From IMG/VR virus record IMGVR_UViG_3300032308_002078, positions 16,073 through 80,072 of that record: a stretch of DNA of 64,000 nt. The stretch is one strand, 5' to 3'. The stretch's first letter is position 1, and the number at the start of each line of letters is the position of its first letter. The notes under the pieces were generated by a model. The model made no database searches. It was not told the DNA's origin and saw only the letters and a program-made list of their open reading frames with translations. The DNA is from a virus (taxonomy: Duplodnaviria > Heunggongvirae > Uroviricota > Caudoviricetes). Below are positions 18,597-51,584 of the stretch, one piece after another. The position numbers and the translations under genes were made by a program.

Positions 18597-18678
18597 TTAA
18601 TATTTATAATAAAATAATAATATTTATAATCGCCAAGTCGAGGTGGCATTTAAGATATTAAAAATATAATACCCAAGC

Positions 18679-19470
18679 GTGAGTAAGGACCTCGACCCTG
18701 AAAGCGTCTTGGGTTTTTTATTTATGAATAATATAACTTACATATACGAATTATCAAAAAATGGAATACCATTTTATATTGGAAAAACAATATCCCATGT
18801 TGTTAGAAAACATTACCATAAATTAACTTATGGGAAAGATATTGTATTTACTATCATAGATGAAATACAAGGAGATAAAAATCAATGGAAACCTTTAGAA
18901 ATGTATTGGATAAACCAATATCAACAATGGGGTTTTGTTTTAAAAAATAAAAATGAAGGTGGTGGAGGTAGAAAAATTATTTATACTAGAGAAGAGATAA
19001 GACAAAGACGTAACGAACAAACCAAACAATGGAATAAAATCCACCCAGAAGTAAGTAAAAAATATTCTGAAGAAAACAAAGAAAAATTTAAAGAATATAG
19101 AGAAACAAATAAAGAAAAAATGCTTCAACAAACTAAAGAATGGAGAAAAAATAATCCTGAGTTAGCTAAACAAATGGTAAAAGATTATCAGGAGAAACAT
19201 AAAGAACAGATTAAATCCTATATGCAGGAATGGCAATCCGCTAACAAAGAAAAAATAAGAGAGTATAATAGAATTTATAAAAATTCAAAATCTACCAAAC
19301 AAAGAAAAAATATAATTCAATATACTTTAGACGATATTTTTATCAAAGAATGGAATTCAGCTACTGAAGCTGCTTTATTTTTAAATAAAAAAACACCTGC
19401 GGCAATATATGAAGTATGTAATGGAAAACGAAAAACTATTTATGGATATAAATGGGGATATAAAAATTAA
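18679..19470 (+). CDS. GIY-YIG homing endonuclease inserted between tail-fibre genes
   Basis: ITYIYEL...FYIGKT; Lys/Glu-rich repeats; C-terminal IIQYTLDDIFIKEWNSATEAALFL...GYKWGY; two ATATTTATAATAAA motifs upstream. Confidence 0.7.
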   Translation: MSKDLDPESVLGFLFMNNITYIYELSKNGIPFYIGKTISHVVRKHYHKLTYGKDIVFTIIDEIQGDKNQWKPLEMYWINQYQQWGFVLKNKNEGGGGRKIIYTREEIRQRRNEQTKQWNKIHPEVSKKYSEENKEKFKEYRETNKEKMLQQTKEWRKNNPELAKQMVKDYQEKHKEQIKSYMQEWQSANKEKIREYNRIYKNSKSTKQRKNIIQYTLDDIFIKEWNSATEAALFLNKKTPAAIYEVCNGKRKTIYGYKWGYKN

Positions 19471-19506
19471 TTAATTTATCAATATTTATAATAAAATAAT
19501 AATAAC

Positions 19507-19791
19507 ATGGCAACACAAGAATCTGAATATGCTAATCGCAGGTTTGTAATTTTCAACGTTACAGAACTCCCCCTTATTGACTTTAACCAAGTCTATGAAA
19601 CATCAATTGATACAGTTCGTAAATCAGTTGATGAAACTCAAACATTCGTAAAATACGATATGCCCCAACCTTCATCAGTTACTGCTTTAACTACAAAATC
19701 TATAGAATACACATATGATGAGATTCTAACTATTCTAGCGACTCCAGAATGGACAGACCCTAACCCATTTCCTTCAGGTTCAATAGGTTAA
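19507..19791 (+). CDS. hypothetical protein
   Basis: 94 aa. Confidence 0.35.
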   Translation: MATQESEYANRRFVIFNVTELPLIDFNQVYETSIDTVRKSVDETQTFVKYDMPQPSSVTALTTKSIEYTYDEILTILATPEWTDPNPFPSGSIG

Positions 19792-19795
19792 TTGA

Positions 19796-22057
19796 ATGTC
19801 TAGGCCTATAGCATATAATGCTTCAGGTCCTTTGTCTGGTAGTATTAGAGGAGGATCTGTTAATTACACTGTAGACAGTGGTAATAGGGACTATACTACC
19901 TTTGCCTCTAAAAAATGGGTACCTTCGGCAGACGGAGTTGCCCCAATTGTATTTGTAACAGATTCATATACTCAAGGGTTTGAAGGTAATCCTAATCTAG
20001 CAGTACCATTGTTTTATTCTTGTAATGGAACAGGTTCGGCAGCTATTATCTATACCGCAAACCGCATACCTGGTTCACCAGGTAATTACAGTGATGCAAA
20101 TGTTGCATTAAATGATTTAATAACTGCTAGAGGTTATTTTATTTTAGAATCAAATGATCCATTTGAGGGAGTAGATGCTGATAGTTTATTATTAGATGTT
20201 GATGCCTCTAAAATGTCTTCTTATCCTCAAGTAGGTACTAACTGGATTGATTTGAGTGGTAATGGAAATACAGGAGCTTTACAAAATGGGGTATTATTTA
20301 GTTCAAGTGGATGGTTTAATTTTGATGGAACTAATGATCAAGTAGCTACTTCTGTTACTAGAGGAACTCTAGGAGATAGTACTAGTGTTGAAGCTACTTT
20401 CCAATATCAAGGAAATAGTGGAGATGCTTATCGCCCTATTATTGGAGGTAATGACCCTGGAGCAGGTACTGAATTCTTTTTAGGTAAAAATTTTGGTAAT
20501 ACTTATTTTGGTGTTCAAGATGGAAATTATGATGGGGGTTTTGTAACAGGATATAATGTGTTCGATGGTAGATGGCACCATATGGTTTACACATATAATA
20601 ATAATACTGGAAAGATTTATTTAGATGGTACTTTAAGAAATACTGGTACTTTTTCTAAATGTAATATTGGGGAACAAATTTATATTGGAGCTGAAGTACA
20701 AGAAGGATACTGGTGGAAAGGAAATATATCTCAGGCAAAATATTACACACAAACATTAACTGAAACTCAAGTCAAACAAAACTACTTCGGTTCACCAATA
20801 GTCACAGACGGTCTAGTATTTGCTGTTGATGCTAATAATATAGTATCATATCCTAAATCAGGAACATCAGTATATAATTTAACAGGTAGTGCAACTACAG
20901 GAACATTAACAAACGGAACATCATTTAATATATCAAATGGTGGTTCTTTTATGTTTGATGGTACTAATGATTATATTGTATTTCCTGACGACACTAATTT
21001 AGATAGTCAAGCTATCACAATGGAAAGTTGGAGTAATATAAGTACACTTTTCCAAAATGGATTTTTATTTGAAAAAGGAAATGTAAACACTCAATACAGT
21101 AATTTTTTTAATAGTGACGGTACTTTTTACTTTAGAACAATGGGTTTAAGTGCCCAAGATTTAACATTCTATTGCCCTAGTTACATAAGTCCTAATACTT
21201 GGAATCATATTGTTTGCACATATGGAGCAGGAATTAAAACAATTTACATAAATGGTATTCAAATAGCTCAACAAACTGGATTAACTGGTATTATTCCTAC
21301 AAATCCAGCTGGTTTGTTTTTAGGAGCTTATGGACCTGGTTCAAGTTATTTCTTAAATGGTAAAATAGCTAATTCTAGAGTATACAACAAAGCACTTACA
21401 GCTGCCGAAGTCCTCCAAAACTACCAAGCCGAACAATACAGATTCAAAACATTCCCTGGTATTCCAACAAACGGATTAATACTCCATCTAGATGCTAATA
21501 ATAAACAATCTTACCCAGGTACAGGTACAGTGTGGTACGATATTTCAGGACAAGGGGCTAATGCTGATTTAGTTAATGGTGTTGCTTATAACTCAGCAGG
21601 ATACTTCTTCTTTGATGGAACAGACGATATAGCAAACTCTATTAACATATCTCAAGAATATAGAGATTTAGTTATAGGAATATGGAGTGAAAGCAATGGT
21701 GGTCTAGAAATGGTATTCTCACTTTATGGAGGATCAGATGCTTCTTTTAGATTAAATGCCAATAATATATTTAGTGCTAATAATAGTGATGACTGGCAAT
21801 TTGGATCTAATAATTTAGTATTTGTTGATGGAGTATATACTCCTGATGCTAATTTAGCTAGTCAATTCCATTTTGTAAGAACTTATAGATCAAATAATGT
21901 AGATTTTGGAACTTCATTTAGATATAGCTTATCATCTACATTCTTAAGTAGATATTTTAAAGGTAAAATAGCATTTGTCTTAGCTTATAATAGACAATTA
22001 TCAGATGCTGAGGTTAGAGGATTATATTATTATTATAAAGACAGATTTCCATTCTAA
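19796..22057 (+). CDS. tail fibre paralogue with multiple LamG-like domains
   Basis: N-terminus MSRPIAYNASGPLSGSI..VNYTVD is paralogous to ORFs 15352 and 22057; three FDGTND/YN(K/R)ALTAAEVLQNY modules. Confidence 0.55.
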   Translation: MSRPIAYNASGPLSGSIRGGSVNYTVDSGNRDYTTFASKKWVPSADGVAPIVFVTDSYTQGFEGNPNLAVPLFYSCNGTGSAAIIYTANRIPGSPGNYSDANVALNDLITARGYFILESNDPFEGVDADSLLLDVDASKMSSYPQVGTNWIDLSGNGNTGALQNGVLFSSSGWFNFDGTNDQVATSVTRGTLGDSTSVEATFQYQGNSGDAYRPIIGGNDPGAGTEFFLGKNFGNTYFGVQDGNYDGGFVTGYNVFDGRWHHMVYTYNNNTGKIYLDGTLRNTGTFSKCNIGEQIYIGAEVQEGYWWKGNISQAKYYTQTLTETQVKQNYFGSPIVTDGLVFAVDANNIVSYPKSGTSVYNLTGSATTGTLTNGTSFNISNGGSFMFDGTNDYIVFPDDTNLDSQAITMESWSNISTLFQNGFLFEKGNVNTQYSNFFNSDGTFYFRTMGLSAQDLTFYCPSYISPNTWNHIVCTYGAGIKTIYINGIQIAQQTGLTGIIPTNPAGLFLGAYGPGSSYFLNGKIANSRVYNKALTAAEVLQNYQAEQYRFKTFPGIPTNGLILHLDANNKQSYPGTGTVWYDISGQGANADLVNGVAYNSAGYFFFDGTDDIANSINISQEYRDLVIGIWSESNGGLEMVFSLYGGSDASFRLNANNIFSANNSDDWQFGSNNLVFVDGVYTPDANLASQFHFVRTYRSNNVDFGTSFRYSLSSTFLSRYFKGKIAFVLAYNRQLSDAEVRGLYYYYKDRFPF

Positions 22058-24384
22058 TGCCACAACCAGTATCATATAACCCCGGAACACCAGTATCAGG
22101 TAGCATACAAGAAAATAGTATCTCATATGTTGTTGATGGTCAAAACCGTAACTACAGAGGTGGTTTCGGAGGACTATCTTGGATGAGTGAAGTACCGGCA
22201 GCCAACAATGTTATTTTTATAGGTAACTCTGTTAGTTTAGGTAGAGGACCAGCTAATATACCTTTATTTTATCCCTCATATAATAACAGTGCGGCCAATA
22301 TTATTTATGCCGCTAATACATTACCGGGTTCACCTAGAAACTTTACTACAACAGGTAGTGCTTATAATTGGGCGGCAACAAATAATTTCTTTATTAATAA
22401 CTCAGATAACCCTATTCCTAGGATTGATGCTGATGGGTTAGTATTATATTTAAATGCTTCCCTCCCAACTTCATACCCACAAACAGGAACAACATGGTAT
22501 GATTTATCAGGATATGGGAATAATGCTACTTTATATAATGGATTAAATTCAAACTGGAATTCAAATGGGTGGTTTTCATTTGATGGGGTAGATGACAATG
22601 CCGCTATAAATTATGATTCTACTAGTATGGCTGCTTGGACTGGAAGTCAAACTATTATATTTTGGGAATATCATACCTTTAATGATGGAAGTAGAAGAAA
22701 TTTATGGAATCAAGCATACGGTGGGGCGGGAACATGGACACATGAACAAGGATATAACATAAATTACTTCTATGGAAACTCAGGAACAGACAATAGTCCA
22801 TATACAGCATTAACCTCAGATCCAACTCCTTTAGGTAGATGGAATATGTTAACTACAACTAGAGATCCAAGTCAAGTAAAATGGTATATAAATAATATTA
22901 ATACAAATAATCAATCAAATCCATTTGGTGTACTTACTCTTACAACAGCTGGTATAACTATAGGAAATGGTTATACAGGAGTACCTTGGGTTGGTAATAT
23001 AGGAGCTATAGCAGCTTATAATAAAGCTTTAACTCAAGCTGAAATAAATCAAGTATATTTCCAAGGTAATATTGTTACAGGTAGTTTAGTATTCATGGTA
23101 GATGCTAATAATTTAGTATCATATCCTAAATCAGGAACAACATGGTATAATTTAACAGGTAGTTCAGGAAATGCTCTATTTTATAATGGACCTACTTATT
23201 TACCCCAATACGGAGGAGGTATTAATAGAGACAATACTGATGATTTTATATCAGCTAGTATCAGTGTTTCTACTACTACAAACTATAGTGTAGAAACTTG
23301 GTTTAAAGCAAATCCACTAACTGGAGCTAACTATAATGCTTTAATTAGTGCTTGGAACGCACCCGGTGGTGGAGCAGGGTCATGGGAATGGCAGTTTTAC
23401 AATGGTGTATTAGGAGTTCATCCAAACTACACAGTAGCTTATACTCCCAATACAATAGCTCATGCTGTTTATACTCAAAATGGAACAGAAACAAAAATTT
23501 ATTTAAATGGGATACTACAACAAACAAGTACTACTTCTGGTGTTGATTTAAGAAATGGAAGTATAGGAATTGGTAATTTAAGTGCTCCTGGGTATGGTGG
23601 ATATAATTTAGAAAGCACATTCTATAATGTTAGATTATATAATAAAACATTAACCTCAGATGAAGTCCAACAAAACTATCAAGCAACTAAAGATAAATTC
23701 CTAGGTCAAAATATAGTAACAAATGGATTAACACTTTATTTAGATTCTGCTAATAAAGATTCATATCCCGGAACAGGAACAACATGGTATGATTTAAGTG
23801 GGAATGGATATAATGGAACATTAATAAATGGACCTTCATTTTTATCTAACCAAAATGGAGGCATCTTAGACTTTGATGGAGTTGATGATTATACTTCTTT
23901 AGGGTCTTCAGCTGCTTCTTTAATACAAGGAAAAACAGCAGTCACTATAGGTATTTTCTTTAAATTAGATGTTTTAGATACTTTAAGAGGATTAATAGGT
24001 ACTTTAAATTATTTTTGTGGTGGAAATTTAGGATTGGTAGCTAGGGGCGATGTTTTAACCTTTTATAACGATACAGGGATTTGCTATGATGTAGGTATTT
24101 CAAGTTTTGTAGAAACAGGAAAATGGATATATGCTGTAGGAACATATGATGGAACTACTACTAGAATATATGGAATTAAAGATGGAACTTTATCCCAAAG
24201 TAGTGGAACAAGTAAAAGCGGAGCTACAAATACTTTCACCTCAGATTTTATAGTTATAGGAAACCAATACCCCTATTATTTTACAAATGGACAATGTGGT
24301 ACAGCCTTTGTTTATAACAGAGTATTAAGTCAAGCAGAAATCCTTCAAAACTACAACGCTCAAAAAACAAGATTTGGCCTTTAA
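22057..24384 (+). CDS. tail fibre paralogue with multiple LamG-like domains
   Basis: N-terminus MPQPVSYNPGTPVSGSIQ..ISYVVD; repeated SYP.TGTTWYDLSG..NG.L.NG and LSQAEILQNYNAQKTRFGL modules. Confidence 0.55.
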   Translation: MPQPVSYNPGTPVSGSIQENSISYVVDGQNRNYRGGFGGLSWMSEVPAANNVIFIGNSVSLGRGPANIPLFYPSYNNSAANIIYAANTLPGSPRNFTTTGSAYNWAATNNFFINNSDNPIPRIDADGLVLYLNASLPTSYPQTGTTWYDLSGYGNNATLYNGLNSNWNSNGWFSFDGVDDNAAINYDSTSMAAWTGSQTIIFWEYHTFNDGSRRNLWNQAYGGAGTWTHEQGYNINYFYGNSGTDNSPYTALTSDPTPLGRWNMLTTTRDPSQVKWYINNINTNNQSNPFGVLTLTTAGITIGNGYTGVPWVGNIGAIAAYNKALTQAEINQVYFQGNIVTGSLVFMVDANNLVSYPKSGTTWYNLTGSSGNALFYNGPTYLPQYGGGINRDNTDDFISASISVSTTTNYSVETWFKANPLTGANYNALISAWNAPGGGAGSWEWQFYNGVLGVHPNYTVAYTPNTIAHAVYTQNGTETKIYLNGILQQTSTTSGVDLRNGSIGIGNLSAPGYGGYNLESTFYNVRLYNKTLTSDEVQQNYQATKDKFLGQNIVTNGLTLYLDSANKDSYPGTGTTWYDLSGNGYNGTLINGPSFLSNQNGGILDFDGVDDYTSLGSSAASLIQGKTAVTIGIFFKLDVLDTLRGLIGTLNYFCGGNLGLVARGDVLTFYNDTGICYDVGISSFVETGKWIYAVGTYDGTTTRIYGIKDGTLSQSSGTSKSGATNTFTSDFIVIGNQYPYYFTNGQCGTAFVYNRVLSQAEILQNYNAQKTRFGL

Positions 24385-27407: not shown

Positions 27408-28082
27408 ATGAGTATAGGAATATATAAAATAACAAATCCAAAAGGACAAATATATGTTGGACAGTCTATTAATATTGAAAGAAGATTTAAAGAATATAAA
27501 AGATTAGCTAAACGTGCTGCTGGAAGAAAAATTTTAAATTCATTAAAAGGGTTTGGGGTTAAAAATCATGTTTTTGAAATTATTGAAGAATGTTTAATAG
27601 AACAATTACATGAAAAAGAATATTATTGGAAAAAATATTATACATCAGTAGAAAATGGTTTAAATTGTGATTATTTTGATAATAGTGGAGGACCTAGAAG
27701 TGAAGAAACAAAACGTAAAATTTCTGAAGGAGCTAAAGGTAAAAAACGGTCTGAAGAAACAAAACAAAAACTTAAAAAACCTAAAACAGAAGAACATAAA
27801 CAAAATATAAGTAAATCAAAACAAAATATATCTGAAGAAACAAAACGTAAAATTTCTGAGGGTAAAAAAGGAAAAACACCTAATAGGGATTATAAAGAAT
27901 GGGCTAAAACAAGAACAAATCCTATTCTTCAATATGATTTAGATGGAAATTTTATTAAAGAATGGGAAGGAACAAAAGCTGCAGCTTTATATTTAGGTTG
28001 TGATCCTACTACTATAACAGCAAATTTAAGAGGAATAACAAAAAAAGGATACGGTTTTATATGGAAAAGAAAAACAATTTAG
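27408..28082 (+). CDS. GIY-YIG homing endonuclease adjacent to thyA
   Basis: GIYKITNPKGQIYVGQSINIERRFKEYKR; NUMOD3 repeats SEETKRKISEGKKGK; C-terminal ILQYDLDGNFIKEW...GYGFIWK. Confidence 0.7.
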   Translation: MSIGIYKITNPKGQIYVGQSINIERRFKEYKRLAKRAAGRKILNSLKGFGVKNHVFEIIEECLIEQLHEKEYYWKKYYTSVENGLNCDYFDNSGGPRSEETKRKISEGAKGKKRSEETKQKLKKPKTEEHKQNISKSKQNISEETKRKISEGKKGKTPNRDYKEWAKTRTNPILQYDLDGNFIKEWEGTKAAALYLGCDPTTITANLRGITKKGYGFIWKRKTI

Positions 28083-29140
28083 ATCCACAATATAATAATT
28101 TATTGAAGGATATTTTAGAAAATGGAATTAAAAAACAAACCAGAAATGGAGAAGTAATTTCAGTATTTGGAAGACAAATTCGACATAATATGTCAGATGG
28201 GTTCCCTCTTTTAACAGGGAAAAAGATGTTTTTTAAAGGTATTGTAACTGAATTACTATGGTTCTTACGTGGTGATACAAACATTAAGTTCCTTGTTGAT
28301 AATGGTTGTCATATTTGGGATGGTGATGCTTATAAGAGATATGTTAATAGTCCTGAAGTGAAGATTCCATATAGTAAAGAAGATTTTATCAATAAAATTA
28401 AAACAGATAAAGAGTGGGAAGATAAGTGGGGTGATTTAGGACCAATTTATGGTAAACAATGGAGAAATTGGAATGGAGATAATTTTATTTATGGTGACTT
28501 TAAAAATGGTATAGACCAAATCCAAAATCTAATCAACGACCTTAAAACAAATCCAGACTCAAGACGATTGATGGTTAATGCTTGGAATGTAGGTGAATTA
28601 AATCAAACGGTTCTTCCACCTTGTCATTACAGCTGGCAAATGTATACAAGAGAGTTGAGTAGAGAAGAAAGAATAGAAAACTATAACTCTAAATTTGAAA
28701 ATAAAATAGAAGTACCGTTTATAAAATTAAACTTGGGAGATGCAATAGAAAATACTATCGATATGACTCTAAGTCAAGTTAACATACCAACACGAGCAAT
28801 CTCTTTAATGTGGAATCAACGTTCGGTTGATGTATTCCTAGGTTTGCCGTTTAATATCGCTTCATACGGTCTATTACTTGAGATGATTGCACGTGAAGTA
28901 AATATGGTGCCTGAATATTTAATCGGTCATTTAGGCGACACACATTTGTATTCAAACCATATTGAACAAGCTAAAGAACAAATTAGCAGAACACCTAAAA
29001 AATTACCTACATTAAAAATGAGTTCGGGTCATAATTTTAGAGCAGCAATGGATGGTAAAGTAGATGAAATTGACTTGAATGATTTTATATTACTTGGATA
29101 TGAACCACACCCAACAATTAAAGCCCCTTTATCAAATTAA
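28061..29140 (+). CDS. thyA: thymidylate synthase (ThyA) with about 50-aa internal insertion
   Basis: Conserved ThyA blocks RNGEV...FG.Q.R, GFPLLTGKK, ELLWFLRGDTN, DLGPIYGKQWRNW, R.LMVNAWN, LPPCH (catalytic Cys), DVFLGLPFNIASYGLL, GDTHLYSNH, GYEPHP.IKAP; insertion after the PCH block as in some phage and Firmicutes ThyA. Confidence 0.85.
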   Translation: MEKKNNLDPQYNNLLKDILENGIKKQTRNGEVISVFGRQIRHNMSDGFPLLTGKKMFFKGIVTELLWFLRGDTNIKFLVDNGCHIWDGDAYKRYVNSPEVKIPYSKEDFINKIKTDKEWEDKWGDLGPIYGKQWRNWNGDNFIYGDFKNGIDQIQNLINDLKTNPDSRRLMVNAWNVGELNQTVLPPCHYSWQMYTRELSREERIENYNSKFENKIEVPFIKLNLGDAIENTIDMTLSQVNIPTRAISLMWNQRSVDVFLGLPFNIASYGLLLEMIAREVNMVPEYLIGHLGDTHLYSNHIEQAKEQISRTPKKLPTLKMSSGHNFRAAMDGKVDEIDLNDFILLGYEPHPTIKAPLSN

Positions 29141-31577: not shown

Positions 31578-32429
31578 ATGAATACACTAATTAAAGTAGC
31601 TATTATGCTCGGAGTAGCAGTAGTAGCAGGTTTTGCAATCATCGGTCTAGAAAGAATCGATGCAGGTCATGTAGGTATCAAAGTTAATTTGATTGGTACC
31701 GGTAAGGGAGTAGATAACGCAACCGAAGTAACTGGTTGGGTATTTTACAACCGTTTCACAACTAAGATTGTTGAGTTTCCAACATTTGTACAACATAAAG
31801 AGTACAGGAAAGTTGAAGACAGTGATGAATCATTTGTAATTAACTCTAAGGACGGTAGTGAGTTCCATGTTTCACCACTACTAAACTACTCAGTACAACG
31901 TGAAAAAGTACCTTATATCTTTACTAAGTACCGTGTTGAGTTGGGTGCTATTGAAGCTGGATTTCTAAAAACTGCTGTTTATGATGCCTTTAGGGTTGTT
32001 GCTAATAGTTATACTGCTGATGAATTGATTTCTAATCGTGAATTGTTTGAGAATAAAGTTAGAAAGAATTTGGAAAGTCATTTGTTGCCTGAAGGATTTA
32101 TTTTGGCTCAATTTACTTCAAACCTAGTCTATCCAGAAACATTTAAGAAAGCTATTGAAGCTAAAAATAATGCAGTACAGTCAGCGTTGAGAGCTGAAAA
32201 TGAAGTTAAAACAGCTGAAGCACAAGCTAAAATTAAAGTAGCAACTGCCGCTGGTAATGCTCAAGCAATGTTGACAAGTGCTAAAGCAGAAGCTGAAGCA
32301 AACCGTTTGAAACAACAAACAATTACACCAATGTTGTTACAACTTGAATGGGTTAATAAATGGAATGGTAAATTGCCTGAAACAATGTTAGGTCAAGGCA
32401 GTAATACATTTTATGGATTAAATAAATAA
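31578..32429 (+). CDS. SPFH/band-7 (stomatin/prohibitin-like) membrane protein
   Basis: N-terminal TM; SPFH core with Ala-rich coiled-coil tail (AEAQAKIKVATAAGNAQAMLTSAKAEAEANRLKQQ), architecture of HflK/C-like proteins. Confidence 0.6.
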   Translation: MNTLIKVAIMLGVAVVAGFAIIGLERIDAGHVGIKVNLIGTGKGVDNATEVTGWVFYNRFTTKIVEFPTFVQHKEYRKVEDSDESFVINSKDGSEFHVSPLLNYSVQREKVPYIFTKYRVELGAIEAGFLKTAVYDAFRVVANSYTADELISNRELFENKVRKNLESHLLPEGFILAQFTSNLVYPETFKKAIEAKNNAVQSALRAENEVKTAEAQAKIKVATAAGNAQAMLTSAKAEAEANRLKQQTITPMLLQLEWVNKWNGKLPETMLGQGSNTFYGLNK

Positions 32430-32448
32430 TAAATTTAAAAACATTTTA

Positions 32449-32480
32449 AAGAGAGGTTTGGTTTTCCAAACCTCTTTTTT
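32449..32480 (+). terminator. rho-independent terminator
   Basis: GAGAGGTTTGG tttt CCAAACCTCT hairpin plus T7 run. Confidence 0.65.
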
Positions 32481-32492
32481 TATATTAACAGT

Positions 32493-33149
32493 ATGAAAAT
32501 AGTATTAGAAAAAGGTCAAAACTTATTTTTTACTAGTGATACTCACTATAATCACTCTAACATTTGTAGAGCAACTACAAGGTGGACTGATGCTGATAAT
32601 GTGACTCGTGATTTTAAATCACTTGATCATATGAATGACACTATTGTTAATAACATTAATGAGATAGTAGGGGAAAATGATATTTTAATTCACTTAGGTG
32701 ATTGGTCATTTGGTGGTTTTGAAATGATTGAAGAATTTAGGAGCCGTATTATATGTAAGAATGTTCATTTAGTGCTCGGTAATCATGACCACCATATTGA
32801 GCGTAATAAAGACGATATAAGGCGTTTATTCACATCAGTAAACCATTATATTAACTTAGATGTTAGATGTCATTCACTTACAAAGAAAGGTGAGATGCAT
32901 AAATTTAAGTTTGTACTAATGCATTTTCCTATCGCAAGTTGGGATGGTATGAATGATAATGTTATTCATCTTCATGGACATGTTCATTTACCTAAGCATC
33001 AAAGAATTGCTGAAGGTAGAGCAATGGATGTTGGGGTAGATGGAAATGACATGTACCCAGTAGGTATATTTGGGGTACTTAATTTACTTAAAAACCAACC
33101 AATTAAAAAATTGTGTTTACCAAAGGACCATCATGAAAAGCGTATTTAA
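32493..33149 (+). CDS. calcineurin-like metallophosphoesterase (candidate 2',3'-phosphatase of an RNA-repair module)
   Basis: Phosphoesterase motifs FTSDTHYNH, HLGDW, LGNHD, HGHVH. Confidence 0.65.
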   Translation: MKIVLEKGQNLFFTSDTHYNHSNICRATTRWTDADNVTRDFKSLDHMNDTIVNNINEIVGENDILIHLGDWSFGGFEMIEEFRSRIICKNVHLVLGNHDHHIERNKDDIRRLFTSVNHYINLDVRCHSLTKKGEMHKFKFVLMHFPIASWDGMNDNVIHLHGHVHLPKHQRIAEGRAMDVGVDGNDMYPVGIFGVLNLLKNQPIKKLCLPKDHHEKRI

Positions 33150-33495
33150 TGTGAAAGACTTTATACTACACTCAGAAGCTTTAGAGTTAAAGCAACTTGG
33201 ATTTGATGAACCTTGTTTTGGTGTTTATGCCACAAAGGATGGATATGTCAGAAAAAGTGCATATGATGAAATTGGAGATGCTCCAACTTATTCACAAGCA
33301 TTTAGATGGTTTAGAGATAAGTACGACCTATATTGTTATGTTGAACCATATAAAGATAATCAATTTGATTATGTAGTGGTTAGTGATTTGTTTGGACAAG
33401 AAGACTGCGATGGCGAATTATTGAATACCTACGAAGAAGCAGAACTTGCTTGTCTTAGAGAAATGATTAAAATAGTAAAAGAAAAACAAAAATGA
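33134..33495 (+). CDS. hypothetical protein (track ORF 33070; probable start MKSVF)
   Basis: 120 aa between phosphoesterase and kinase. Confidence 0.3.
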
Positions 33496-33872
33496 AAGAA
33501 CTAATATTACTTCGTGGAATCCCAGGCAGCGGAAAGTCAACATTTGCAAAACTTGTTTGTAATCAACATGTTGAGGCAGATATGTTTTTTATGCAAGATG
33601 GAGAATATAAATTTGATGCTTCTAAACTTAGGCAAGCACATGCTTGGTGTCAAGAAAAAACTGAAACATGGATGAAAATGCGTTATAATGTAGTTGTTTC
33701 AAATACATTTACTCAAGAATGGGAAATGGAAGCGTATTATAAATTAGCTGAACAGTATGGTTATCGAGTTCATTCTATTATAATGGAGAATAGACATTTT
33801 GGTATTAATGAGCATAATGTGCCTGTAGACAAATTAGAACAAATGAAAAATAGATTCGAGGTAAAATTATGA
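33492..33872 (+). CDS. P-loop polynucleotide 5'-kinase (T4 Pnk kinase-domain-like)
   Basis: Walker A LLRGIPGSGKST; VVVSNTFTQEWEMEAYYKLAEQYGYRVHSI and NVPVDKLEQMKNRF parallel T4 Pnk kinase-domain blocks. Confidence 0.55.
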   Translation: MKELILLRGIPGSGKSTFAKLVCNQHVEADMFFMQDGEYKFDASKLRQAHAWCQEKTETWMKMRYNVVVSNTFTQEWEMEAYYKLAEQYGYRVHSIIMENRHFGINEHNVPVDKLEQMKNRFEVKL

Positions 33873-34132
33873 GCGAAGAATATTCACCTTATTGTCCTAT
33901 ATGTGAGGGGTGTGGAGAAGATGGTTGCTGTTCAGCAGTGCATTGTCAACAACATCCTGATGGTAGTTACTGCCAAACATACCTACAAGATCTAAAACAT
34001 GCTTACCTAATGAATGATTGGTGGTATAAAAATGTTTATGATACCTTATCACCTGAGTTAAAAGAACAATGTGATGCTGAGTTTGATAAAGCTTATGATC
34101 ATTGTTACAAAGAGCTTGGCTCCTCAGAATAA
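33869..34132 (+). CDS. Cys-rich small protein
   Basis: CPICEGCGEDGCC..HC motif cluster. Confidence 0.3.
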   Translation: MSEEYSPYCPICEGCGEDGCCSAVHCQQHPDGSYCQTYLQDLKHAYLMNDWWYKNVYDTLSPELKEQCDAEFDKAYDHCYKELGSSE

Positions 34133-34167
34133 TGATGTTATATTTATAGTATAATAAAAATAAAGTT

Positions 34168-34509
34168 ATGAGAGTAATAGAAGTATCAGGAGAATTAGTA
34201 TTTGAAGACGGAACTCGTTTATATTCAAGCCATGAGAGTAGTTGTTGTGAGTCACATTATTTGGACTTTGAACATATTAGTATAGATGATTTTGAAGGAC
34301 TTGATTTTGATTTATCAAATGATAATTTCTTTGAAGCCGTAGATGGTTATGGTATTCGTTTAGTTCCTACAAATGGTTTTCCAGTATCTATTCCAGGTTA
34401 TGGTTATAATAATGGATATTATAGTACTGAGCTTGAATTAGTTTTAAGTTCACCTGATGGGAACCGTAGAGTGTTTGATATTAGTGATTGTCAAGAAATA
34501 AATTATTAA
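34168..34509 (+). CDS. hypothetical protein
   Basis: 113 aa. Confidence 0.3.
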   Translation: MRVIEVSGELVFEDGTRLYSSHESSCCESHYLDFEHISIDDFEGLDFDLSNDNFFEAVDGYGIRLVPTNGFPVSIPGYGYNNGYYSTELELVLSSPDGNRRVFDISDCQEINY

Positions 34510-34518
34510 ATAAAAGTT

Positions 34519-35652
34519 ATGGAAAATAATAATAGTGTATGTTTTGTAGCTCGTATTAACGAGATTAAACCAATTGAAGGTGCAGATAACATTGAGTTAG
34601 GTGTTATTGGTGGTTGGAATTGTATTATTAAGAAAGGAGAATACACCGAAGGTGATTTAGTTGTAGTAGCAACTACTGATGCTGTTATACCTCAAGAATT
34701 ATCTGATTCAATGAATGTAACTAATTATTTGAGAAAAGGTCAAAGAGTTAGAACAGTTAAATTAAGAGGTGTATATAGTGAGTGTTTAATTATCCCTATT
34801 AGTATCGCAGCTAAAGCAACTGGTTTTGCTAATACTAAGTTTGATGAAGGTGATGATATGATGGATACATTGAAAATTTTTAAGTACGAACCACCAGCAG
34901 TTGAAGTACAGCTAGCTTCAGGTCGTAAAATTAGATATAGTCAAAATCCAAACTTTGGTATTTACTACAAGTTCCCAAACATTAAAAACGTTAAAGGAAT
35001 GTTTAATGAAGAAGATGTTGTAGAAGTATCTCGTAAGATTCACGGTACTAATGCTCGTTATGGTATTGTTAAGAAAAACAAACTTAGTTTGTGGGATAAA
35101 GTAAAACGTTTATTTGGAGACAAATGGATTGAATATGAATACGTTTATGGTAGCCATAATGTGGAGAAAGGATCTGATTCACAAGGTTTTTACGATACTG
35201 ATGTTTGGAGAACAATTGCTGATAGATACAACATTAGAGAAAAGCTGTGGAAATTCTTTAAACACACTAAAGATCTATATAATACTAGTGAGGGTATTAT
35301 TATCTACGGAGAAATTTATGGCCCAGGTATTCAAAAGAACTATGACTATGGTTTAAAAGAAATTGAGTATGCTGGTTTTGATGTTACTATTAACGGTGAA
35401 TACCAACCGACTTCTAGAAGTTATGTAATTCATGATAACTTAGGGCTTAGTTATGTACCTGTATTAGAATTTAATGTTTGGTCTGAAGATTTACTTACTA
35501 AATATACCTTTGATAAAATTGAAGGCACTAAAGTACCACATGAAGGAGTAGTAGTTAAATCAACTGATGGTGATAGACGTAAAGTTGCAAAGGTAATTAA
35601 CCCAGACTATCTAATTTATGGAGAAAAAAATAACGTAGGAGATTCACACTAA
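34519..35652 (+). CDS. RNA ligase, Rnl2 family (nucleotidyltransferase)
   Basis: Motif I RKIHGTNAR (KxHGxN, as in T4 Rnl2 EKIHGTNFS); motif IV-like YGEIYGPGIQKNYDYG (T4 Rnl2 FGEFAGPGIQKNVDY). Confidence 0.7.
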   Translation: MENNNSVCFVARINEIKPIEGADNIELGVIGGWNCIIKKGEYTEGDLVVVATTDAVIPQELSDSMNVTNYLRKGQRVRTVKLRGVYSECLIIPISIAAKATGFANTKFDEGDDMMDTLKIFKYEPPAVEVQLASGRKIRYSQNPNFGIYYKFPNIKNVKGMFNEEDVVEVSRKIHGTNARYGIVKKNKLSLWDKVKRLFGDKWIEYEYVYGSHNVEKGSDSQGFYDTDVWRTIADRYNIREKLWKFFKHTKDLYNTSEGIIIYGEIYGPGIQKNYDYGLKEIEYAGFDVTINGEYQPTSRSYVIHDNLGLSYVPVLEFNVWSEDLLTKYTFDKIEGTKVPHEGVVVKSTDGDRRKVAKVINPDYLIYGEKNNVGDSH

Positions 35653-35655
35653 AAT

Positions 35656-35850
35656 ATGAAAACACCTGAAGAACAAATAAAAGAAGTAATGGAAATGACT
35701 GATGATATGTTGGTTGAAATCCATAAAGACCTTGTTGAAAAAGTTGGAGAAGAATCAGCAAATAACTGGGTTAGGATGCTTAAAAAATTTAGAGAGGAAG
35801 AAATTGAAATGTTTAAACAAAACCAAAATGATAACAGGAGAACAACCTAA
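35656..35850 (+). CDS. hypothetical protein
   Basis: 64 aa. Confidence 0.3.
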   Translation: MKTPEEQIKEVMEMTDDMLVEIHKDLVEKVGEESANNWVRMLKKFREEEIEMFKQNQNDNRRTT

Positions 35851-36196
35851 ACTATTAGTTGCGATTGACGAAAATGGCAACATAGGTCTTGATGAAAATC
35901 AAGCGGAATTAATGGGCTTAATTGAAAACGAATTTAATTGGAAATTGGTTCGTGAACGTGATGGGCTAACTAATCAATCTAAAGATATTAAATGGATTGA
36001 ATGGAATGAGGAAGGTAGATTTAAAGCTGATCATAAAGAACCAGCAGTAGGTCGAGCATTACTTATGTCTCCATTTAATGATTTTTTTACTTGGATGACA
36101 ACAGATGTTACAGAAATTTTGGAAAACCAAGAGGATTATGTTAAATTTAGGACACGAAATAGTAATTACGAGTTATGGAAACTAAAAAACGATTAA
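35829..36196 (+). CDS. hypothetical protein (likely start MITGEQPK; track ORF 35702 overlaps previous gene)
   Basis: Frame continues to 36196. Confidence 0.3.
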
Positions 36197-36468
36197 CTAG
36201 AGAACAAAAACGAGAACAAGCTGTTGTTGATTTAATTAATCAAATGTTTATTATTGCTGGTCATGAAGTTACATTTGACGATATTAAGGACCGAAAAGAT
36301 GATTGGTATATGAAATGGACTATGACTGTTGAGCAGAGTGAAGAATTGAAAAAATGGGGTATAGATTACCTACGTAAGAATCTTAAAATAAATAAAGCAT
36401 CAGCCGAAAAGGAAATGATGTGGTTTAATTTACAATGGGGTTTAACTTATTCTAACTGGGAAGAATAA
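36175..36468 (+). CDS. hypothetical protein
   Basis: 97 aa. Confidence 0.3.
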   Translation: METKKRLTREQKREQAVVDLINQMFIIAGHEVTFDDIKDRKDDWYMKWTMTVEQSEELKKWGIDYLRKNLKINKASAEKEMMWFNLQWGLTYSNWEE

Positions 36469-36669
36469 ACAAAAATGAAAAGTAAAATATTTAGAGCATT
36501 TATGCTTATTGGGATTTTAGGTAATGTGGGGGTAGGGATATCTTACCTTATAACTGGTGGTTGGTCAATAGCTATAATGCATATTGGTTGTGGTCTTATT
36601 TTTACACCTATGTATTTAAAGTTAAAAAATAATCCTAAGTAAAAGAAGGTTTAAAGAGGGTTTTAAGGG

Positions 36670-36728
36670 CTTGGCCTCATGTGATTGTGATGTTATATTT
36701 ATGTCATAATAAAAAACGATAAAAGGTT
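36670..36728 (+). promoter_or_regulatory. conserved promoter motif (class 1); 45-bp near-identical copy of 49877-49929
   Basis: CTTGGCCT...GTGATGTTATATTTATGTCATAATAAAAAACGATAAAAGGTTATG. Confidence 0.5.
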
Positions 36729-37550
36729 ATGAAAAATGTAAATGTTGTAAAAAGAGGCCGTCCAAGTAGTAAGAGTGTTCAAAACGTTACTTACACTCCA
36801 TCACTTATTGATTTTTCAAATGTAACAAAATTGAGTGACTTGAATATTGATTCACGTATGATGAATTCAATGAAATCAGGTTTAAATATTGATAGTATGT
36901 TCTCACATGAAGGAGGTATTCCAGCTGCAACTAACATTATGATGATTGGTGACCCAGGAGTAGGTAAAACAACTGTATTATTAGATGTGTTGAGTGCTGT
37001 TCAAAATAAAGGAGGTAAATGTTTATTTATTTCAGGTGAGATGGGTAAGAAGCAAATGTTCAAATACACAGAACGCTTTAAACAATTTGGATGTATTGAA
37101 ACATTGTTTATGCAAGATTTTTTAGATTACAATACTAAAGATGTAATTGAGCAAGTTTTGAATCGTGGTTATGATTTAGTATTGATTGATTCAGCAGCTG
37201 AAATTATTGAAGGTGTTCGTGACGACAACAATTGGGATCGTAAAATGGCTGAGTCATGGTTGGTTGATGTTTGTATCAAGAATAATAAAGGTGAAAATAC
37301 AGATACTAAATTCACTTCGTTTTTGTTGATTCAACAAGTAACTAAATCAGGTGTATTTGCAGGTTCAAACAAACTTAAGCACCTTGTTGATGCAATGGGA
37401 GAAATGAGAAGAGAATCAGAGCGTGATGGTTCAGGTACTTATATTAACTTTACTAAAAACAGAAATGGTTTGGTTGATGTTAAAATGTATTATGAATTGA
37501 ATAACAGTAAAATTAAGTACGGTCAAATGATGTCTAACAATAATGATTAA
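36729..37550 (+). CDS. RecA-superfamily ATPase (Sak4/DnaB-C-terminal-like)
   Basis: Walker A GDPGVGKTT; Walker B-like DLVLIDSAAE; size and pattern of phage Sak4/RadA-like ATPases. Confidence 0.5.
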   Translation: MKNVNVVKRGRPSSKSVQNVTYTPSLIDFSNVTKLSDLNIDSRMMNSMKSGLNIDSMFSHEGGIPAATNIMMIGDPGVGKTTVLLDVLSAVQNKGGKCLFISGEMGKKQMFKYTERFKQFGCIETLFMQDFLDYNTKDVIEQVLNRGYDLVLIDSAAEIIEGVRDDNNWDRKMAESWLVDVCIKNNKGENTDTKFTSFLLIQQVTKSGVFAGSNKLKHLVDAMGEMRRESERDGSGTYINFTKNRNGLVDVKMYYELNNSKIKYGQMMSNNND

Positions 37551-43377: not shown

Positions 43378-43572
43378 ATGATAAAAGATGAAAAATTAAC
43401 TCAACAAGCAATTTCTTATCTCGAGAAATGTGACGGATGTAAAGCGTCAATAAAAAGCGTCCCATGCAACGATATAGAGGCCAGATTCTCTGCCTATCTG
43501 AGAGTTAAAAAAGGCATGTCCTTGGTTGCCATGGTTGATTGGGAAAAAGTTTCTAAACACTTTACCGCATGA
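43378..43572 (+). CDS. hypothetical protein
   Basis: 64 aa. Confidence 0.3.
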   Translation: MIKDEKLTQQAISYLEKCDGCKASIKSVPCNDIEARFSAYLRVKKGMSLVAMVDWEKVSKHFTA

Positions 43573-44057
43573 TAAAATATATTTCTCCAGATGCCATTAC
43601 CAACAATCCAGAGTATCTGGAAGTTGATATTCGTCCAGATATAGACGGTGGTCATAAGATGTCTCGTGTAACTCATTTTACTCGAATATCAACCGATGAT
43701 GGATGGGATACTGTGGTATATTACCGCTATATAGGGTCTAATAACAACTCAAACTCCGTTCGCAATAAGCTCGGTGGCTTTGTTTATATATTAACTAATA
43801 ACGCCTATCCGGGTATTTGTAAGATAGGCATGACTACAAACTCTCCCGAACATCGCCTTCATCAAATCAATAATGCCGGGGTGATGGATGATTGGGAAAT
43901 AGCTTTTTCTATACAAACAGGTCGTCCTTATGATTTTGAAAAGTATATCCATAGTATGCTATCCGAGGTTAGGACTAGGGGCGATAGGGAGTTTTTTGAT
44001 ATACCTGTGAGTGAGGCTATTGAATTAATTAATGAGTCCTCACATAAATTTAAATAA
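43569..44057 (+). CDS. T5orf172 (GIY-YIG-like) domain protein
   Basis: GGFVYILTNNAYPGICKIGMT...RLHQIN...REFFDIPVSEAI follows the T5orf172/MUG113 pattern. Confidence 0.5.
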   Translation: MIKYISPDAITNNPEYLEVDIRPDIDGGHKMSRVTHFTRISTDDGWDTVVYYRYIGSNNNSNSVRNKLGGFVYILTNNAYPGICKIGMTTNSPEHRLHQINNAGVMDDWEIAFSIQTGRPYDFEKYIHSMLSEVRTRGDREFFDIPVSEAIELINESSHKFK

Positions 44058-46570: not shown

Positions 46571-47752
46571 ATGAATAACGTTTACGAAGAAATCGCAAAA
46601 TTTTCTAAGCAATTAATGCTTAAAGAACCATTTTATGGTTTAGTTTTAATTAGTCTTAATAAAGAGCTAGATAAAAACATCCAGACAGCTTATGTTACTC
46701 CAGATAAGATTAATACTAAATTAAAAGTTAATCCTGAGTTTTGGGGTACATTAGATGATAAGACTAAATTAGGAGTATTAAAACATGAATTACTTCATAT
46801 TTGTTTTTTTCATTTAACTAATTGGGATCGTTTTGAGAATAAAAAAGTTTATAATATGGCTGCTGATTTAGAAATCAACCAGTATATTAATTCTGATATG
46901 AAAGGTGAGGCTTGGGATGGATTGGAAATTGATGGTCCTACTTTTGCACCTCTTAATTTAGAACCTAAAAAAGGTACAGGTTATTATTATGGTAAATTGA
47001 TGCAAGAAATTCAAGACAATCCAGAGGGTGATATAGCTAAAATGGCTAGTGAAAGTGGAGATTTTGTTTTGGATTTGGATGGGGTTGAAGGTTTGAGTGA
47101 GGCTGAAAAGAAACTCATTGCTAAACAAATTGACCATCAATTAAAAGATGTAACTAATGCCTTAGAGAAAAAAGGTAGCAGCAGAGGTTTAGTACCAGGT
47201 GAAATGAAAGACTATATTGATAGTTTGTTTGAAATTGTTGAACCTGTTATTGATTGGAAATCATATTTAAGACGTTTTAATAGTATGTCTACTATGGTTT
47301 ATACTAAAAAAACTCGTCGTAAACCGAACAGACGTTTTGGAACTGGTCCTGCCCTTAAAATAAAACAAAAGAAAAGAACATTAGTTGCTATTGATACTTC
47401 AGGTTCTGTTAGTAATGATGATTTAGTAGAGTTTTTCAATGAAATTTATCATATATACAAATCAGGTACTTATGTTGATATTATAGAATGTGATGCTAAA
47501 GTTAGAAGGGTTTATGAGTATAAAGGTGAAAGAAATGAGATTGAAGTACAAGGTAGAGGTGGTACTGATTTTGAACCTGTAATGGTTTACCTAGCTGAGA
47601 ATAGAGACAAATATGCTAATTTGATTTACTTAACTGATGGTGAATGTACTGCTCCTCAAACTCAACCTAAGAAACCTATGTTATGGGTTCATAGTTCAGG
47701 TCATAATATAAATGATACTCTACCAGGTGCTAAAGTAAGAATTGTAAGATAA
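46571..47752 (+). CDS. VWA-domain protein with N-terminal HExxH putative metallopeptidase domain (DUF2201-like)
   Basis: LKHELLHICFFHL (HExxH); MIDAS motif LVAIDTSGSVS followed by VWA fold features (GGTDF, YLTDGE). Confidence 0.6.
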   Translation: MNNVYEEIAKFSKQLMLKEPFYGLVLISLNKELDKNIQTAYVTPDKINTKLKVNPEFWGTLDDKTKLGVLKHELLHICFFHLTNWDRFENKKVYNMAADLEINQYINSDMKGEAWDGLEIDGPTFAPLNLEPKKGTGYYYGKLMQEIQDNPEGDIAKMASESGDFVLDLDGVEGLSEAEKKLIAKQIDHQLKDVTNALEKKGSSRGLVPGEMKDYIDSLFEIVEPVIDWKSYLRRFNSMSTMVYTKKTRRKPNRRFGTGPALKIKQKKRTLVAIDTSGSVSNDDLVEFFNEIYHIYKSGTYVDIIECDAKVRRVYEYKGERNEIEVQGRGGTDFEPVMVYLAENRDKYANLIYLTDGECTAPQTQPKKPMLWVHSSGHNINDTLPGAKVRIVR

Positions 47753-50805: not shown

Positions 50806-50891
50806 GCTACTGTGGCGGAATAGGTAGACGCGTTGGACTTAAAATCCAATGGACAGTAATGTTCGTACCGGTTCGATTCCGGTCAGTAGTA
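50806..50891 (+). tRNA. tRNA-Leu (anticodon TAA), class II
   Basis: Acceptor GCTACTG/CAGTAGT; D-arm TGGCGGAATAGGTAGACGC; anticodon loop CTTAAAA; long variable arm; T-loop TTCGATT. Confidence 0.7.
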
Positions 50892-50924
50892 CAAAAAATA
50901 AAAAATTATATATTTATATCAAAA

Positions 50925-51115
50925 TGAAAAAAGTATTATTTATCGCCGCTATTTTCGCTTTGGCTTCTTGCTCAAACGAAACTACTACCTCTTCAACCGA
51001 TTCAACATGTGTTGATTCAACTTGTTCTGATTCATTTAACACTGATTCTCTTATCCAAATCACAGAAGCACATGCTGATTCTTTGCATACAGAGATTATG
51101 GAGTTGAAAAAATAA
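50925..51115 (+). CDS. small lipoprotein embedded in tRNA array
   Basis: MKKVLFIAAIFALASC lipobox; Ser/Thr/Asp-rich mature region; track ORF 50849 starts inside tRNA-Leu. Confidence 0.45.
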
Positions 51116-51126
51116 TAACTCTAAAC

Positions 51127-51209
51127 GCCGAGATCGCATAGCGGTTGATTGCACCTGACTTGTAATCAGGTTCCGTAAGGACACGCCAGTTCGAATCTGG
51201 CTCTCGGCT
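51127..51209 (+). tRNA. atypical class II tRNA with anticodon loop CTTGTAA (reads as UGU)
   Basis: Acceptor GCCGAGA/TCTCGGC; 3-bp D-stem; AGCGGTTGATT D-loop like the Tyr and Ser genes here; anticodon stem CCTGA/TCAGG; 14-nt variable arm; T-loop TTCGAAT. Confidence 0.45.
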
Positions 51210-51270
51210 CAAATGTAGTCTTCAATTAACTCCCCGACCCAATTAAAATGTTAGTTGGAGGCTACTCCCC

Positions 51271-51345
51271 GCGGGTGTCGTATAATGGTTATTACACTAG
51301 CCTTCCAAGCCTGTGATGTCAGTTCGATTCTGTCCACCCGCTCCA
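51271..51345 (+). tRNA. tRNA-Gly (TCC)-like with weakened anticodon stem; encoded CCA
   Basis: Perfect acceptor GCGGGTG/CACCCGC; loop CTTCCAA identical to bacterial Gly-UCC; anticodon stem CTAGC/GCCTG pairs at only 3 of 5 positions. Confidence 0.45.
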
Positions 51346-51370
51346 AAAAGAAAGAAAAAAATTAAATATA

Positions 51371-51420
51371 GTTTGGCGATTTAAAATTCCTTACATATAT
51401 TTATCACATATTAAAACACA
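51371..51420 (+). promoter_or_regulatory. promoter-like motif inside tRNA array
   Basis: GTTTGGCG ... TACATATATTTATCACATATTAAAA, a variant of the recurrent GTTTGGC(T) / TTATATTTA motif. Confidence 0.4.
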
Positions 51421-51554: not shown

Positions 51555-51584
51555 AGCCCGATTCACAAGATCGGGCATTTTTTA
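51555..51584 (+). terminator. rho-independent terminator
   Basis: GCCCGAT tcacaa GATCGGGC hairpin plus T6. Confidence 0.65.

Follow-up and report, generated by a model that had tools for sequence, protein, structure and literature searches.

A predicted polynucleotide end-healing and sealing cassette with an Rnl5-type RNA ligase in an uncultured tailed phage

Phages classically answer host defences that cleave tRNA by repairing RNA, but to our knowledge only the T4 Pnkp/Rnl1 pair has been worked out. The present analysis concerns a stretch of 64,000 nucleotides from a virus of the Caudoviricetes (IMG/VR record IMGVR_UViG_3300032308_002078, positions 16,073 to 80,072; hereafter the window). 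Three neighbouring genes in this window were read, in an initial annotation made from the sequence alone, as a phosphoesterase, a 5'-kinase and an RNA ligase that together form an RNA end-healing and sealing cassette, and the profiles, predicted folds, conserved synteny and gene fusions gathered here agree with that reading. We consider it probable that the cassette is a polynucleotide end-healing and sealing module, most likely one directed at RNA. It is a known kind of RNA end-healing and sealing system with a ligase swap, and it differs here in having a predicted Rnl5-type ligase, a kinase without the canonical DxxR arginine and a phosphoesterase of an uncharacterised subfamily. The three open reading frames (ORFs) lie where the initial annotation had put them, all on the + strand:

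32493–33149, + strand: MPE, a 218-amino-acid (aa) metallophosphoesterase (PF00149, phrog_547)
33492–33872, + strand: KIN, a 126-aa P-loop kinase (AAA_33, phrog_2071, phrog_505, Foldseek, hhalign)
34519–35652, + strand: LIG, a 377-aa ATP-dependent RNA ligase (PF21189, PF09414, TIGR02306)

The three enzymes and their active sites

LIG consists of an N-terminal OB domain (residues ~10–127) followed by a nucleotidyltransferase domain (~150–365). The first matches PF21189 (PHA02142 OB; residues 10–94, E-value 8e-17) and the second the RNA_ligase domain PF09414 (residues 168–360, 5e-14), with a further match to phrog_968, 'RNA ligase' (3e-60), so that the protein falls into RNA-ligase families and not among DNA ligases or capping enzymes. 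It had been called an Rnl2-type ligase because motif I (K173-I-H-G-T-N178) and the motif III region (Y267-G-P-G-I-Q-K-N274) are the T4 Rnl2 versions. The match of KIHGTN and GPGIQKN to T4 Rnl2 stands, whereas the type does not, as architecture and TIGR02306 both put LIG in Rnl5. TIGR02306, the DRB0094/DraRnl family model, aligns over positions 5–339 of its 341 (1.3e-28), whereas the Rnl2 model TIGR02307 reaches only residues 154–294 (8.6e-5) and T4 Rnl2 itself (2hvq) only the nucleotidyltransferase core (1e-4). The nucleotidyltransferase domain of LIG is C-terminal, and as the protein ends 19 residues past motif V, the Rnl2-type C-terminal domain is absent; by this architecture (OB plus nucleotidyltransferase, as in DraRnl and NgrRnl) LIG is predicted to be Rnl5-type under Shuman's classification. 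Since its score against TIGR02306 (99.9 bits) lies below the NCBIfam equivalog cut-off of 151.15, LIG is best described as a putative divergent Rnl5 member or sister clade rather than an equivalog.

The only strong matches to solved ligases are to the Naegleria gruberi RNA ligase (NgrRnl, 5cot; 9e-16, or 5.7e-21 with the family profile), whose N-domain aligns to LIG residues 10–127 (3e-13). The NgrRnl residues that are essential or contact ATP or metal have been listed (PMC7261155), and K170, E227, F248, E312 and K326, with D53 and K121 of the N-domain, correspond to K173, E265, F287, E342, K358, D54 and K122 of LIG. K170 is the lysine nucleophile of NgrRnl, and E227, E312 and K326 are its essential residues of motifs III, IV and V. 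All seven LIG residues vary little or not at all among 24 homologs, K355 also aligns at motif V, and K173 is the predicted adenylylation site. LIG has in common with DraRnl and NgrRnl the domain order, the full-length TIGR02306 match and the essential NgrRnl residues, but identity is ~28%, motif I reads KIHGTN rather than KxDG, and motifs I and III stand ~40 residues further apart. Its gene is linked to healing enzymes, whereas that of DraRnl lies in an operon with a DEDDh-like gene (PMC5397189).

Predicted structures were needed for the other two enzymes, because single-sequence searches of the PDB with KIN and with MPE gave marginal matches only. KIN matches AAA_33 (3.7e-14), phrog_2071 (6e-42) and phrog_505, 'polynucleotide kinase' (2e-12). 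With its AlphaFold (AF2) model (pLDDT 82.6) the top Foldseek matches in the PDB were the Clostridium thermocellum kinase CthPnk, which came first, T4 Pnkp, Capnocytophaga Pnkp1, phosphoseryl-tRNA kinase (PSTK) and Mucorales RNA 5'-OH kinases, the last of which were also the best sequence-profile matches (2e-4). When the KIN family was aligned by hhalign with T4 Pnk (a sequence identical to 1LTQ) the probability was 95% (E 2.7e-8). The best fold and profile matches are polynucleotide and tRNA kinases, not deoxynucleoside monophosphate kinases, which places KIN outside unrelated nucleoside triphosphate (NTP) kinase families.

Conservation was computed over 133 family representatives at ≤50% identity, among which the P-loop (G9-x-P-G-S-G-K15-S16, >95%), D30, N71-T72, H50, H108 and R121 are conserved. 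N71 and T72 (100% and 96%) align with T4 D85-T86, of which T86 (T80 in the Clostridium enzyme) binds the acceptor phosphate. In Pnk enzymes arginines of the lid contact the gamma phosphate of the NTP; in KIN, R101 lies two positions from T4 R126, yet is only 64% conserved, R121 is 84% conserved, and the lid helix is ~9 residues shorter than in T4 Pnk. In Pnk enzymes a DxxR motif after the P-loop provides the general-base Asp and an Arg that holds the acceptor's first phosphodiester and is essential in both T4 Pnk and CthPnk (PMC3902929). KIN is without this Arg, the family motif being D30-x-[YF]-F33 with D30 98% conserved and F33, at the +3 position, 87%; the function of the Arg is either missing or supplied from elsewhere, with R8, H50, H108 and R121 as candidates. 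A DxxR equivalent suggested by hhalign, D42-x-x-K45, was rejected, as D42 is 70% and K45 51% conserved, against 98% for D30, and the motif reads N...E in the fused homolog P0358.

The likeness of ORF 33492 to the T4 Pnk kinase domain is hence borne out for P-loop, fold and profile and breaks down at the DxxR Arg. From profiles and predicted fold we propose that KIN is a stand-alone 5'-OH polynucleotide kinase, and we treat it as a distinct minimal subfamily that is Pnk-like by fold and context and short of one defining clade feature. The family has invariant residues of its own, R8, Y39, H50, C53, E78, Y82 and H108 (representatives P0241–P0390), with no counterpart in T4 or Clostridium Pnk. 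It may resemble the kinase domain of animal N4BP2/NONU-1, a likeness that serves as a lead only.

In MPE, all the calcineurin-like motifs first noticed in ORF 32493 are found and are invariant across homologs (D16-T-H18, G69-D70-W71, G96-N97-H98-D99 and G162-H163-V-H165), as is H144, completing the core set of a binuclear metallophosphoesterase (DxH, GD, GNH[DE], H, GHxH). The protein matches PF00149 above its gathering threshold (1.5e-6) and phrog_547 (5e-38). Its predicted model (pLDDT 74) matches MJ0936 (10.7), LpxH (10.5), lambda phosphatase (9.6) and the phosphatase domain of the Clostridium enzyme CthPnkp (7.9). The suggestion that this phosphatase is like the CthPnkp domain is correct at the level of the superfamily but not of the clade: MPE lacks membership of the lambda-phosphatase-like clade, as judged by GDxxDRG with its phosphate-binding Arg and by closest fold relatives, and is a member of the uncharacterised Aquifex aq_1665/cd07390 subfamily. 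Lambda phosphatase and CthPnkp both have 2',3'-cyclic phosphodiesterase/phosphatase activity (PMC2190708) and share the fold of MPE, for which reason activity of MPE as a 2',3'-cyclic phosphodiesterase and 3'-phosphatase is plausible.

Linkage, cultured-phage counterparts and fusions

LIG homologs (63–83% identity) were retrieved from IMG/VR at 80 loci, 53 of which have at least 4 kb on either side of LIG and form the basis of the linkage counts. KIN is present in 41 of these 53, MPE in 31 and both in 29. The gene order is not fixed, with MPE-KIN-LIG in 21 loci, KIN-LIG-MPE in 12, KIN-MPE-LIG in 4 and MPE-LIG-KIN once, in a contig of a Sediminibacterium metagenome-assembled genome (MAG); KIN lies directly upstream of LIG in 20 of the 56 KIN-bearing loci among all 80. 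In three of the ten loci that have neither KIN nor MPE, another Metallophos protein adjoins LIG (L005, L007, L017), and because proteins unrelated to MPE replace it there, this suggests that the position next to LIG needs a phosphoesterase. A genome scan yielded only three loci, all in contigs of Bacteroidota or unclassified MAGs and probably phage sequence, and therefore says little on the neighbourhoods of cellular Rnl5 genes.

The initial annotation had called the arrangement unusual, which does not hold: in many cultured phages an RNA ligase has the same stand-alone kinase and phosphoesterase as neighbours, and existing annotations already name them so. Homologs of KIN are found in 641 cultured-phage records and of MPE in 347, and both subfamilies have thousands of metagenomic homologs. 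KIN (38–53% identity) and MPE (27%) homologs accompany an Rnl1-type PF09511 ligase in Escherichia coli phage Bas57, Pseudomonas phage Pyxpy02 (VCM-like) and the Vibrio Thalassavirus ABurr; in Aeromonas phage phiA009 a KIN homolog adjoins an Rnl1-type (PF09511) ligase, and in Acidovorax phage ACP17 KIN and MPE stand beside a gene annotated as an RNA ligase that has no Pfam match. In Bas57 (Vequintavirus, 'MaxTheCat') the annotations read 'RNA ligase', 'polynucleotide kinase' and 'putative phosphoresterase' [sic], and a tRNA cluster lies 3 kb away. These cassettes share with the one described here the KIN family and the MPE subfamily with its motifs, and often lie near tRNA genes, but their ligase is a ~300-aa protein of Rnl1 type (PF09511, where Pfam matched) instead of a 377-aa protein with OB and PF09414 domains of predicted Rnl5 type. 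The concept is thus already known, since the Rnl1 version is annotated in cultured phages and such systems have been described in comparative genomics, and the combination of an Rnl5-type ligase with kinase and phosphoesterase may itself already be in published RNA-repair surveys.

An exhaustive profile search with the KIN family also recovered fusions. The kinase domain is joined to Rnl1 ligases in both orders (P0246, P0286, P0329, P0298) and to HD phosphohydrolases in both orders (P0323, P0282, P0320), and in P0358 a kinase 49% identical to KIN is fused to an OB plus PF09414 ligase of Rnl5 type. In addition, the 737-position profile phrog_8238, which is named 'RNA ligase', has an N-terminal match to KIN (8e-9) and a second match, to MPE, over positions 191–250 (0.0018). 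Some of the KIN fusions could be gene-calling artefacts, an explanation that is unlikely for all seven independent fusion architectures. Because close members of the family are fused to HD domains, kinases of the KIN type pair with interchangeable phosphoesterases. The HD-fused members may be akin to the characterised HD-Pnk enzymes; the window has a separate calcineurin-type enzyme instead. The clustering of the three genes is beyond chance: related as well as unrelated phages share it, with more than one gene order, and fusions occur too. Interchangeable ligases and phosphoesterases together with varied fusions are the standard signature of one pathway. What emerges is a portable healing pair, i.e., a ~130-aa kinase and a ~200-aa metallophosphoesterase, combined with different sealing enzymes across phage lineages.

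Two characterised systems offer the closest comparisons. T4 Pnkp with Rnl1, which counters PrrC, has the same three chemistries as those proposed here, and its kinase domain is the one to which the KIN profile aligns. T4, however, has its kinase and a HAD-type (DxDxT) phosphatase in one protein, with Rnl1 as ligase, in place of three separate proteins, a metallophosphoesterase and a predicted Rnl5-type ligase, and KIN is without an equivalent of T4 Arg38 and most of the lid helix. C. thermocellum Pnkp, of the Pnkp/Hen1 system, combines the same set of kinase, binuclear metallophosphoesterase and adenylyltransferase, and its kinase is the top fold match of KIN. Its partner, the 2'-O-methyltransferase Hen1, is absent near the cassette: Pfam and PHROG searches found no methyltransferase domain in any of the ORFs from 31578 to 37550, and methyltransferase-like ORFs at 1209 and 7820 are >23 kb away. 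Among the ~60 other ORFs of the window there is no Hen1-like methyltransferase, second ligase, RtcB or T4-type Pnkp.

Two kinds of neighbour recur at these loci. NAD-salvage genes (nicotinate/nicotinamide phosphoribosyltransferase and PRPP synthetase) repeatedly neighbour the cassette in unrelated phages (L042, 3976–5850; L002, 4889–8408; L086, 5762–8396). An ATP-dependent DNA ligase gene often lies a few kb from the RNA ligase/kinase pair (L024, 3716–4798; L001, 4658–6031; L002, 1–958; L088, 1–488), and in L024 it stands directly upstream of the Rnl5-type ligase.

Proposed reaction, likely substrates and alternatives

When RNA is cut by a ribotoxin or another metal-independent RNase, one end carries a 2',3'-cyclic phosphate (or 3'-phosphate) and the other a 5'-OH. 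On such a break MPE, as a two-metal enzyme, would open and strip the cyclic or 3' phosphate to leave a 3'-OH; KIN would then move the gamma phosphate of an NTP onto the 5'-OH; and LIG, adenylylated at K173 (lysyl-AMP), would pass its AMP to the 5'-phosphate (AppRNA) and join the ends. A similar division of labour has been put forward on computational grounds for jumbo phages, in which ATP-dependent RNA ligases are said to work with polynucleotide kinases and phosphoesterases, calcineurin-like ones included (PMC7824862).

Several observations weigh against this scheme. The kinase has lost the Arg that is essential in the characterised enzymes, the nearest solved relative of MPE is a protein without known function, and we found no measured activity in the literature for any member of the KIN or MPE subfamilies, nor any biochemical test of the cultured-phage cassettes. 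About one-fifth of the related loci have neither KIN nor MPE near LIG, and MPE homologs occur without a ligase or kinase nearby in Flavobacterium phage immuto and in Cellulophaga phages, in the latter among replication genes. As for the ligase, the physiological role of Rnl5 enzymes was called uncharted by their discoverers, and the sole genetic phenotype, that of DraRnl, concerns DNA repair, i.e., delayed genome reassembly after irradiation (PMC5397189). Finally, because Rnl5 enzymes seal duplex nicks, they fit a break in an anticodon loop less well than Rnl1 does.

The likeliest alternative is that DNA, or a junction of RNA and DNA, is healed and sealed in place of RNA. KIN and MPE would then tidy nicked phage DNA, acting on its 5'-OH and 3'-phosphate ends, and LIG would seal nicks with ribonucleotides on the 3' side, e.g., primer remnants or misincorporated ribonucleoside monophosphates. 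Rnl5 enzymes need RNA on the 3'-OH side only and accept DNA in the other strands, which together with the effect of DraRnl loss on genome reassembly lends this reading some weight (PMC5397189). The DNA ligase gene directly upstream of LIG in L024, and others near the Rnl1-KIN pair in phiA009, Pyxpy02 and Bas57, point the same way, as does the position of the Cellulophaga MPE homologs, and DNA is commonly accepted by Pnk-clade kinases. The KIN and MPE families, however, pair with and fuse to Rnl1-type ligases, of which the characterised T4 enzyme repairs tRNA; tRNA arrays are often near the cassette; and the phages concerned encode separate DNA ligases. On balance we think repair of DNA or mixed junctions unlikely but not negligible, as the Rnl5 architecture also suits RNA:DNA junctions.

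It is more doubtful still that there is no single pathway. In that case MPE would act on small molecules (cyclic or linear nucleotide signals, or Ap4A-like compounds) as a counter-defence or metabolic enzyme in its own right, with only KIN and LIG, or neither, working on polynucleotide ends. MPE is more loosely linked to LIG than KIN is (31 against 41 of the 53 loci), stands alone in immuto and the Cellulophaga phages, belongs to an uncharacterised subfamily and has generic phosphodiesterases, LpxH and Ap4A hydrolases among its structural neighbours. Against this, MPE homologs adjoin KIN in several unrelated phage lineages, phrog_8238 unites kinase-like and MPE-like segments, and other Metallophos proteins stand in for MPE beside LIG. 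That the cassette merely processes the phage's own RNAs, by maturation or circularisation of tRNA-array transcripts or of other structured RNAs and with no repair of host-inflicted damage, is very improbable: large same-strand tRNA arrays are frequently close, but ARAGORN and Rfam find no split, permuted or intron-bearing tRNA in the array, many cassette phages have no tRNA gene in the flanks examined, and we know of no bacterial or phage tRNA maturation step that needs healing and sealing.

We return to the reading of a module for healing and sealing RNA ends and to the RNA it might serve. The window contains one tRNA array, which is given as context and lies outside the cassette:

50806–55171, + strand: array of 24 tRNA genes (ARAGORN; Rfam)

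The initial annotation had noted a large tRNA array on the strand of the cassette. The strand is right, but the array is not adjacent: it begins 15 kb downstream. Rfam gives 23 tRNA matches within the array called by ARAGORN, and tRNAs are its sole matches in the window. In about 16–19 of 41 related viral loci (~40%), LIG has tRNA genes no more than 6 kb away. With the T4 precedent and this proximity in mind, we infer that tRNA may be a substrate, and a connection to anticodon nucleases would likewise follow by inference only; the array itself is possibly a parallel answer to a tRNA-targeting defence. Three observations on RNA genes may be added. A PF04308 RNaseH-like ORF (52220–52759, + strand, 3e-19) lies within the array, between tRNA-His and tRNA-Arg; a weak extra tRNA match in Rfam (52193–52274) overlaps its start; and in L081, a related viral contig, a tmRNA-like gene called by ARAGORN (1387–1787, + strand; 25-residue tag peptide) precedes the ligase by ~4 kb.

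The ligase type offers a further hint as to the substrate. Rnl5 enzymes seal 3'-OH/5'-PO4 nicks in duplexes and require ribonucleotides on the 3'-OH side (PMC5397189). Given the Rnl5 architecture of LIG, the substrate that it prefers would probably be a duplex-held nick with ribonucleotides on the 3'-OH side, which by analogy suggests that the break lies within or beside a tRNA or rRNA stem rather than in a free single-stranded loop. A base-paired nick would match a stem break or an RNA:DNA junction no less well than a break in the anticodon loop.

More tentatively, the cassette could be dedicated to the repair of base-paired RNA nicks, i.e., of tRNA or rRNA stems cut by host ribotoxins, a possibility that we consider less likely than not. 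If true, the Rnl5 clade would gain a physiological role for the first time, in counter-defence by phages; the kinase would represent a new and minimal polynucleotide kinase clade that can dispense with the canonical DxxR Arg; and aq_1665-type metallophosphoesterases would acquire a first function, RNA 3'-end healing. The conserved linkage and the natural kinase-Rnl5 fusion give the function of Rnl5 enzymes a concrete setting in which it can be tested, and KIN and MPE are flagged for biochemistry as two abundant, unstudied enzyme subfamilies.

Cassette layout and the surrounding window

Besides the three core genes, the unit comprises the following features:

32448–32479, + strand: intrinsic-terminator-like hairpin (14-bp stem then T run) separating the cassette from the SPFH gene upstream
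33133–33495, + strand: small ORF of 120 aa, function unassigned (phrog_12005, 1.3e-6; no Pfam match)
33869–34132, + strand: small Cys-rich ORF of 87 aa (no Pfam or PHROG match)
34168–34509, + strand: DUF7448 ORF of 113 aa (PF24240, 1.4e-7)

The hairpin marks the upstream boundary of the unit; three terminator-like sites were observed in 6 kb, where 1.5 were expected, and this one has the longest stem. The ends of the six ORFs 3' of it overlap or almost abut, with operon-like start/stop overlaps at 33133/33149, 33492/33495 and 33869/33872, the 120-aa ORF overlapping both the MPE stop and the KIN start. Two small interleaved ORFs had been reported, and both exist, but a third (33869–34132) was overlooked, and the first starts at 33133 and not at 33134, the frame of which contains 9 stops. 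The idea that they may be additional components was rejected, as they are not conserved with the cassette: the 120-aa ORF is present in 9 of the 80 related loci, the 87-aa ORF in 1 and the DUF7448 ORF in 0 (E ≤ 1e-5). All three are passengers and not core parts.

The window is AT-rich (G+C ~31%), has all its ORFs of at least 150 aa on the + strand, and contains tail-fibre-like genes, thymidylate synthase and homing-endonuclease-like genes in addition to the tRNA genes. The source is a large tailed phage without a cultured close relative; when 50,697 phage records were searched by megablast with the cassette DNA, there were no matches. Its nearest cultured relative, immuto, is linked to it via MPE alone (71% identity). 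This relative, the type IX secretion sorting domain of an encoded protein and the MAG bins of related contigs (Bacteroidetes and Sediminibacterium) suggest that the uncultured phage has a member of the Bacteroidota as host. The protein in question (55213–57105, + strand, 630 aa) is encoded directly 3' of the tRNA array, has Cohesin and Por_Secre_tail (type IX C-terminal sorting) domains and is perhaps exported via the type IX secretion system of the host. In immuto (L084, 5880–7651) the MPE homolog directly follows four annotated tRNA genes, three of which are recovered by ARAGORN; there is no kinase or RNA ligase within 7 kb, and a second 'phosphoesterase' gene lies 2.2 kb downstream.

Elsewhere in the window, four large ORFs (589, 491, 753 and 775 aa) run in series over 15352–24384 (+ strand), interrupted by a 263-aa ORF; they have phrog_24074 and phrog_8510 in common at the C-terminus and look like paralogous tail-fibre or receptor-binding proteins. 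Homing-endonuclease-like genes (GIY-YIG with NUMOD, NUMOD/I-HmuI-like, T5orf172 and HNH) are found at 27408–28082, 3644–4486, 43569–44057 and 46571–47752, all on the + strand. The thymidylate synthase gene (28061–29140), which is long at 359 aa, overlaps at its start with the GIY-YIG ORF.

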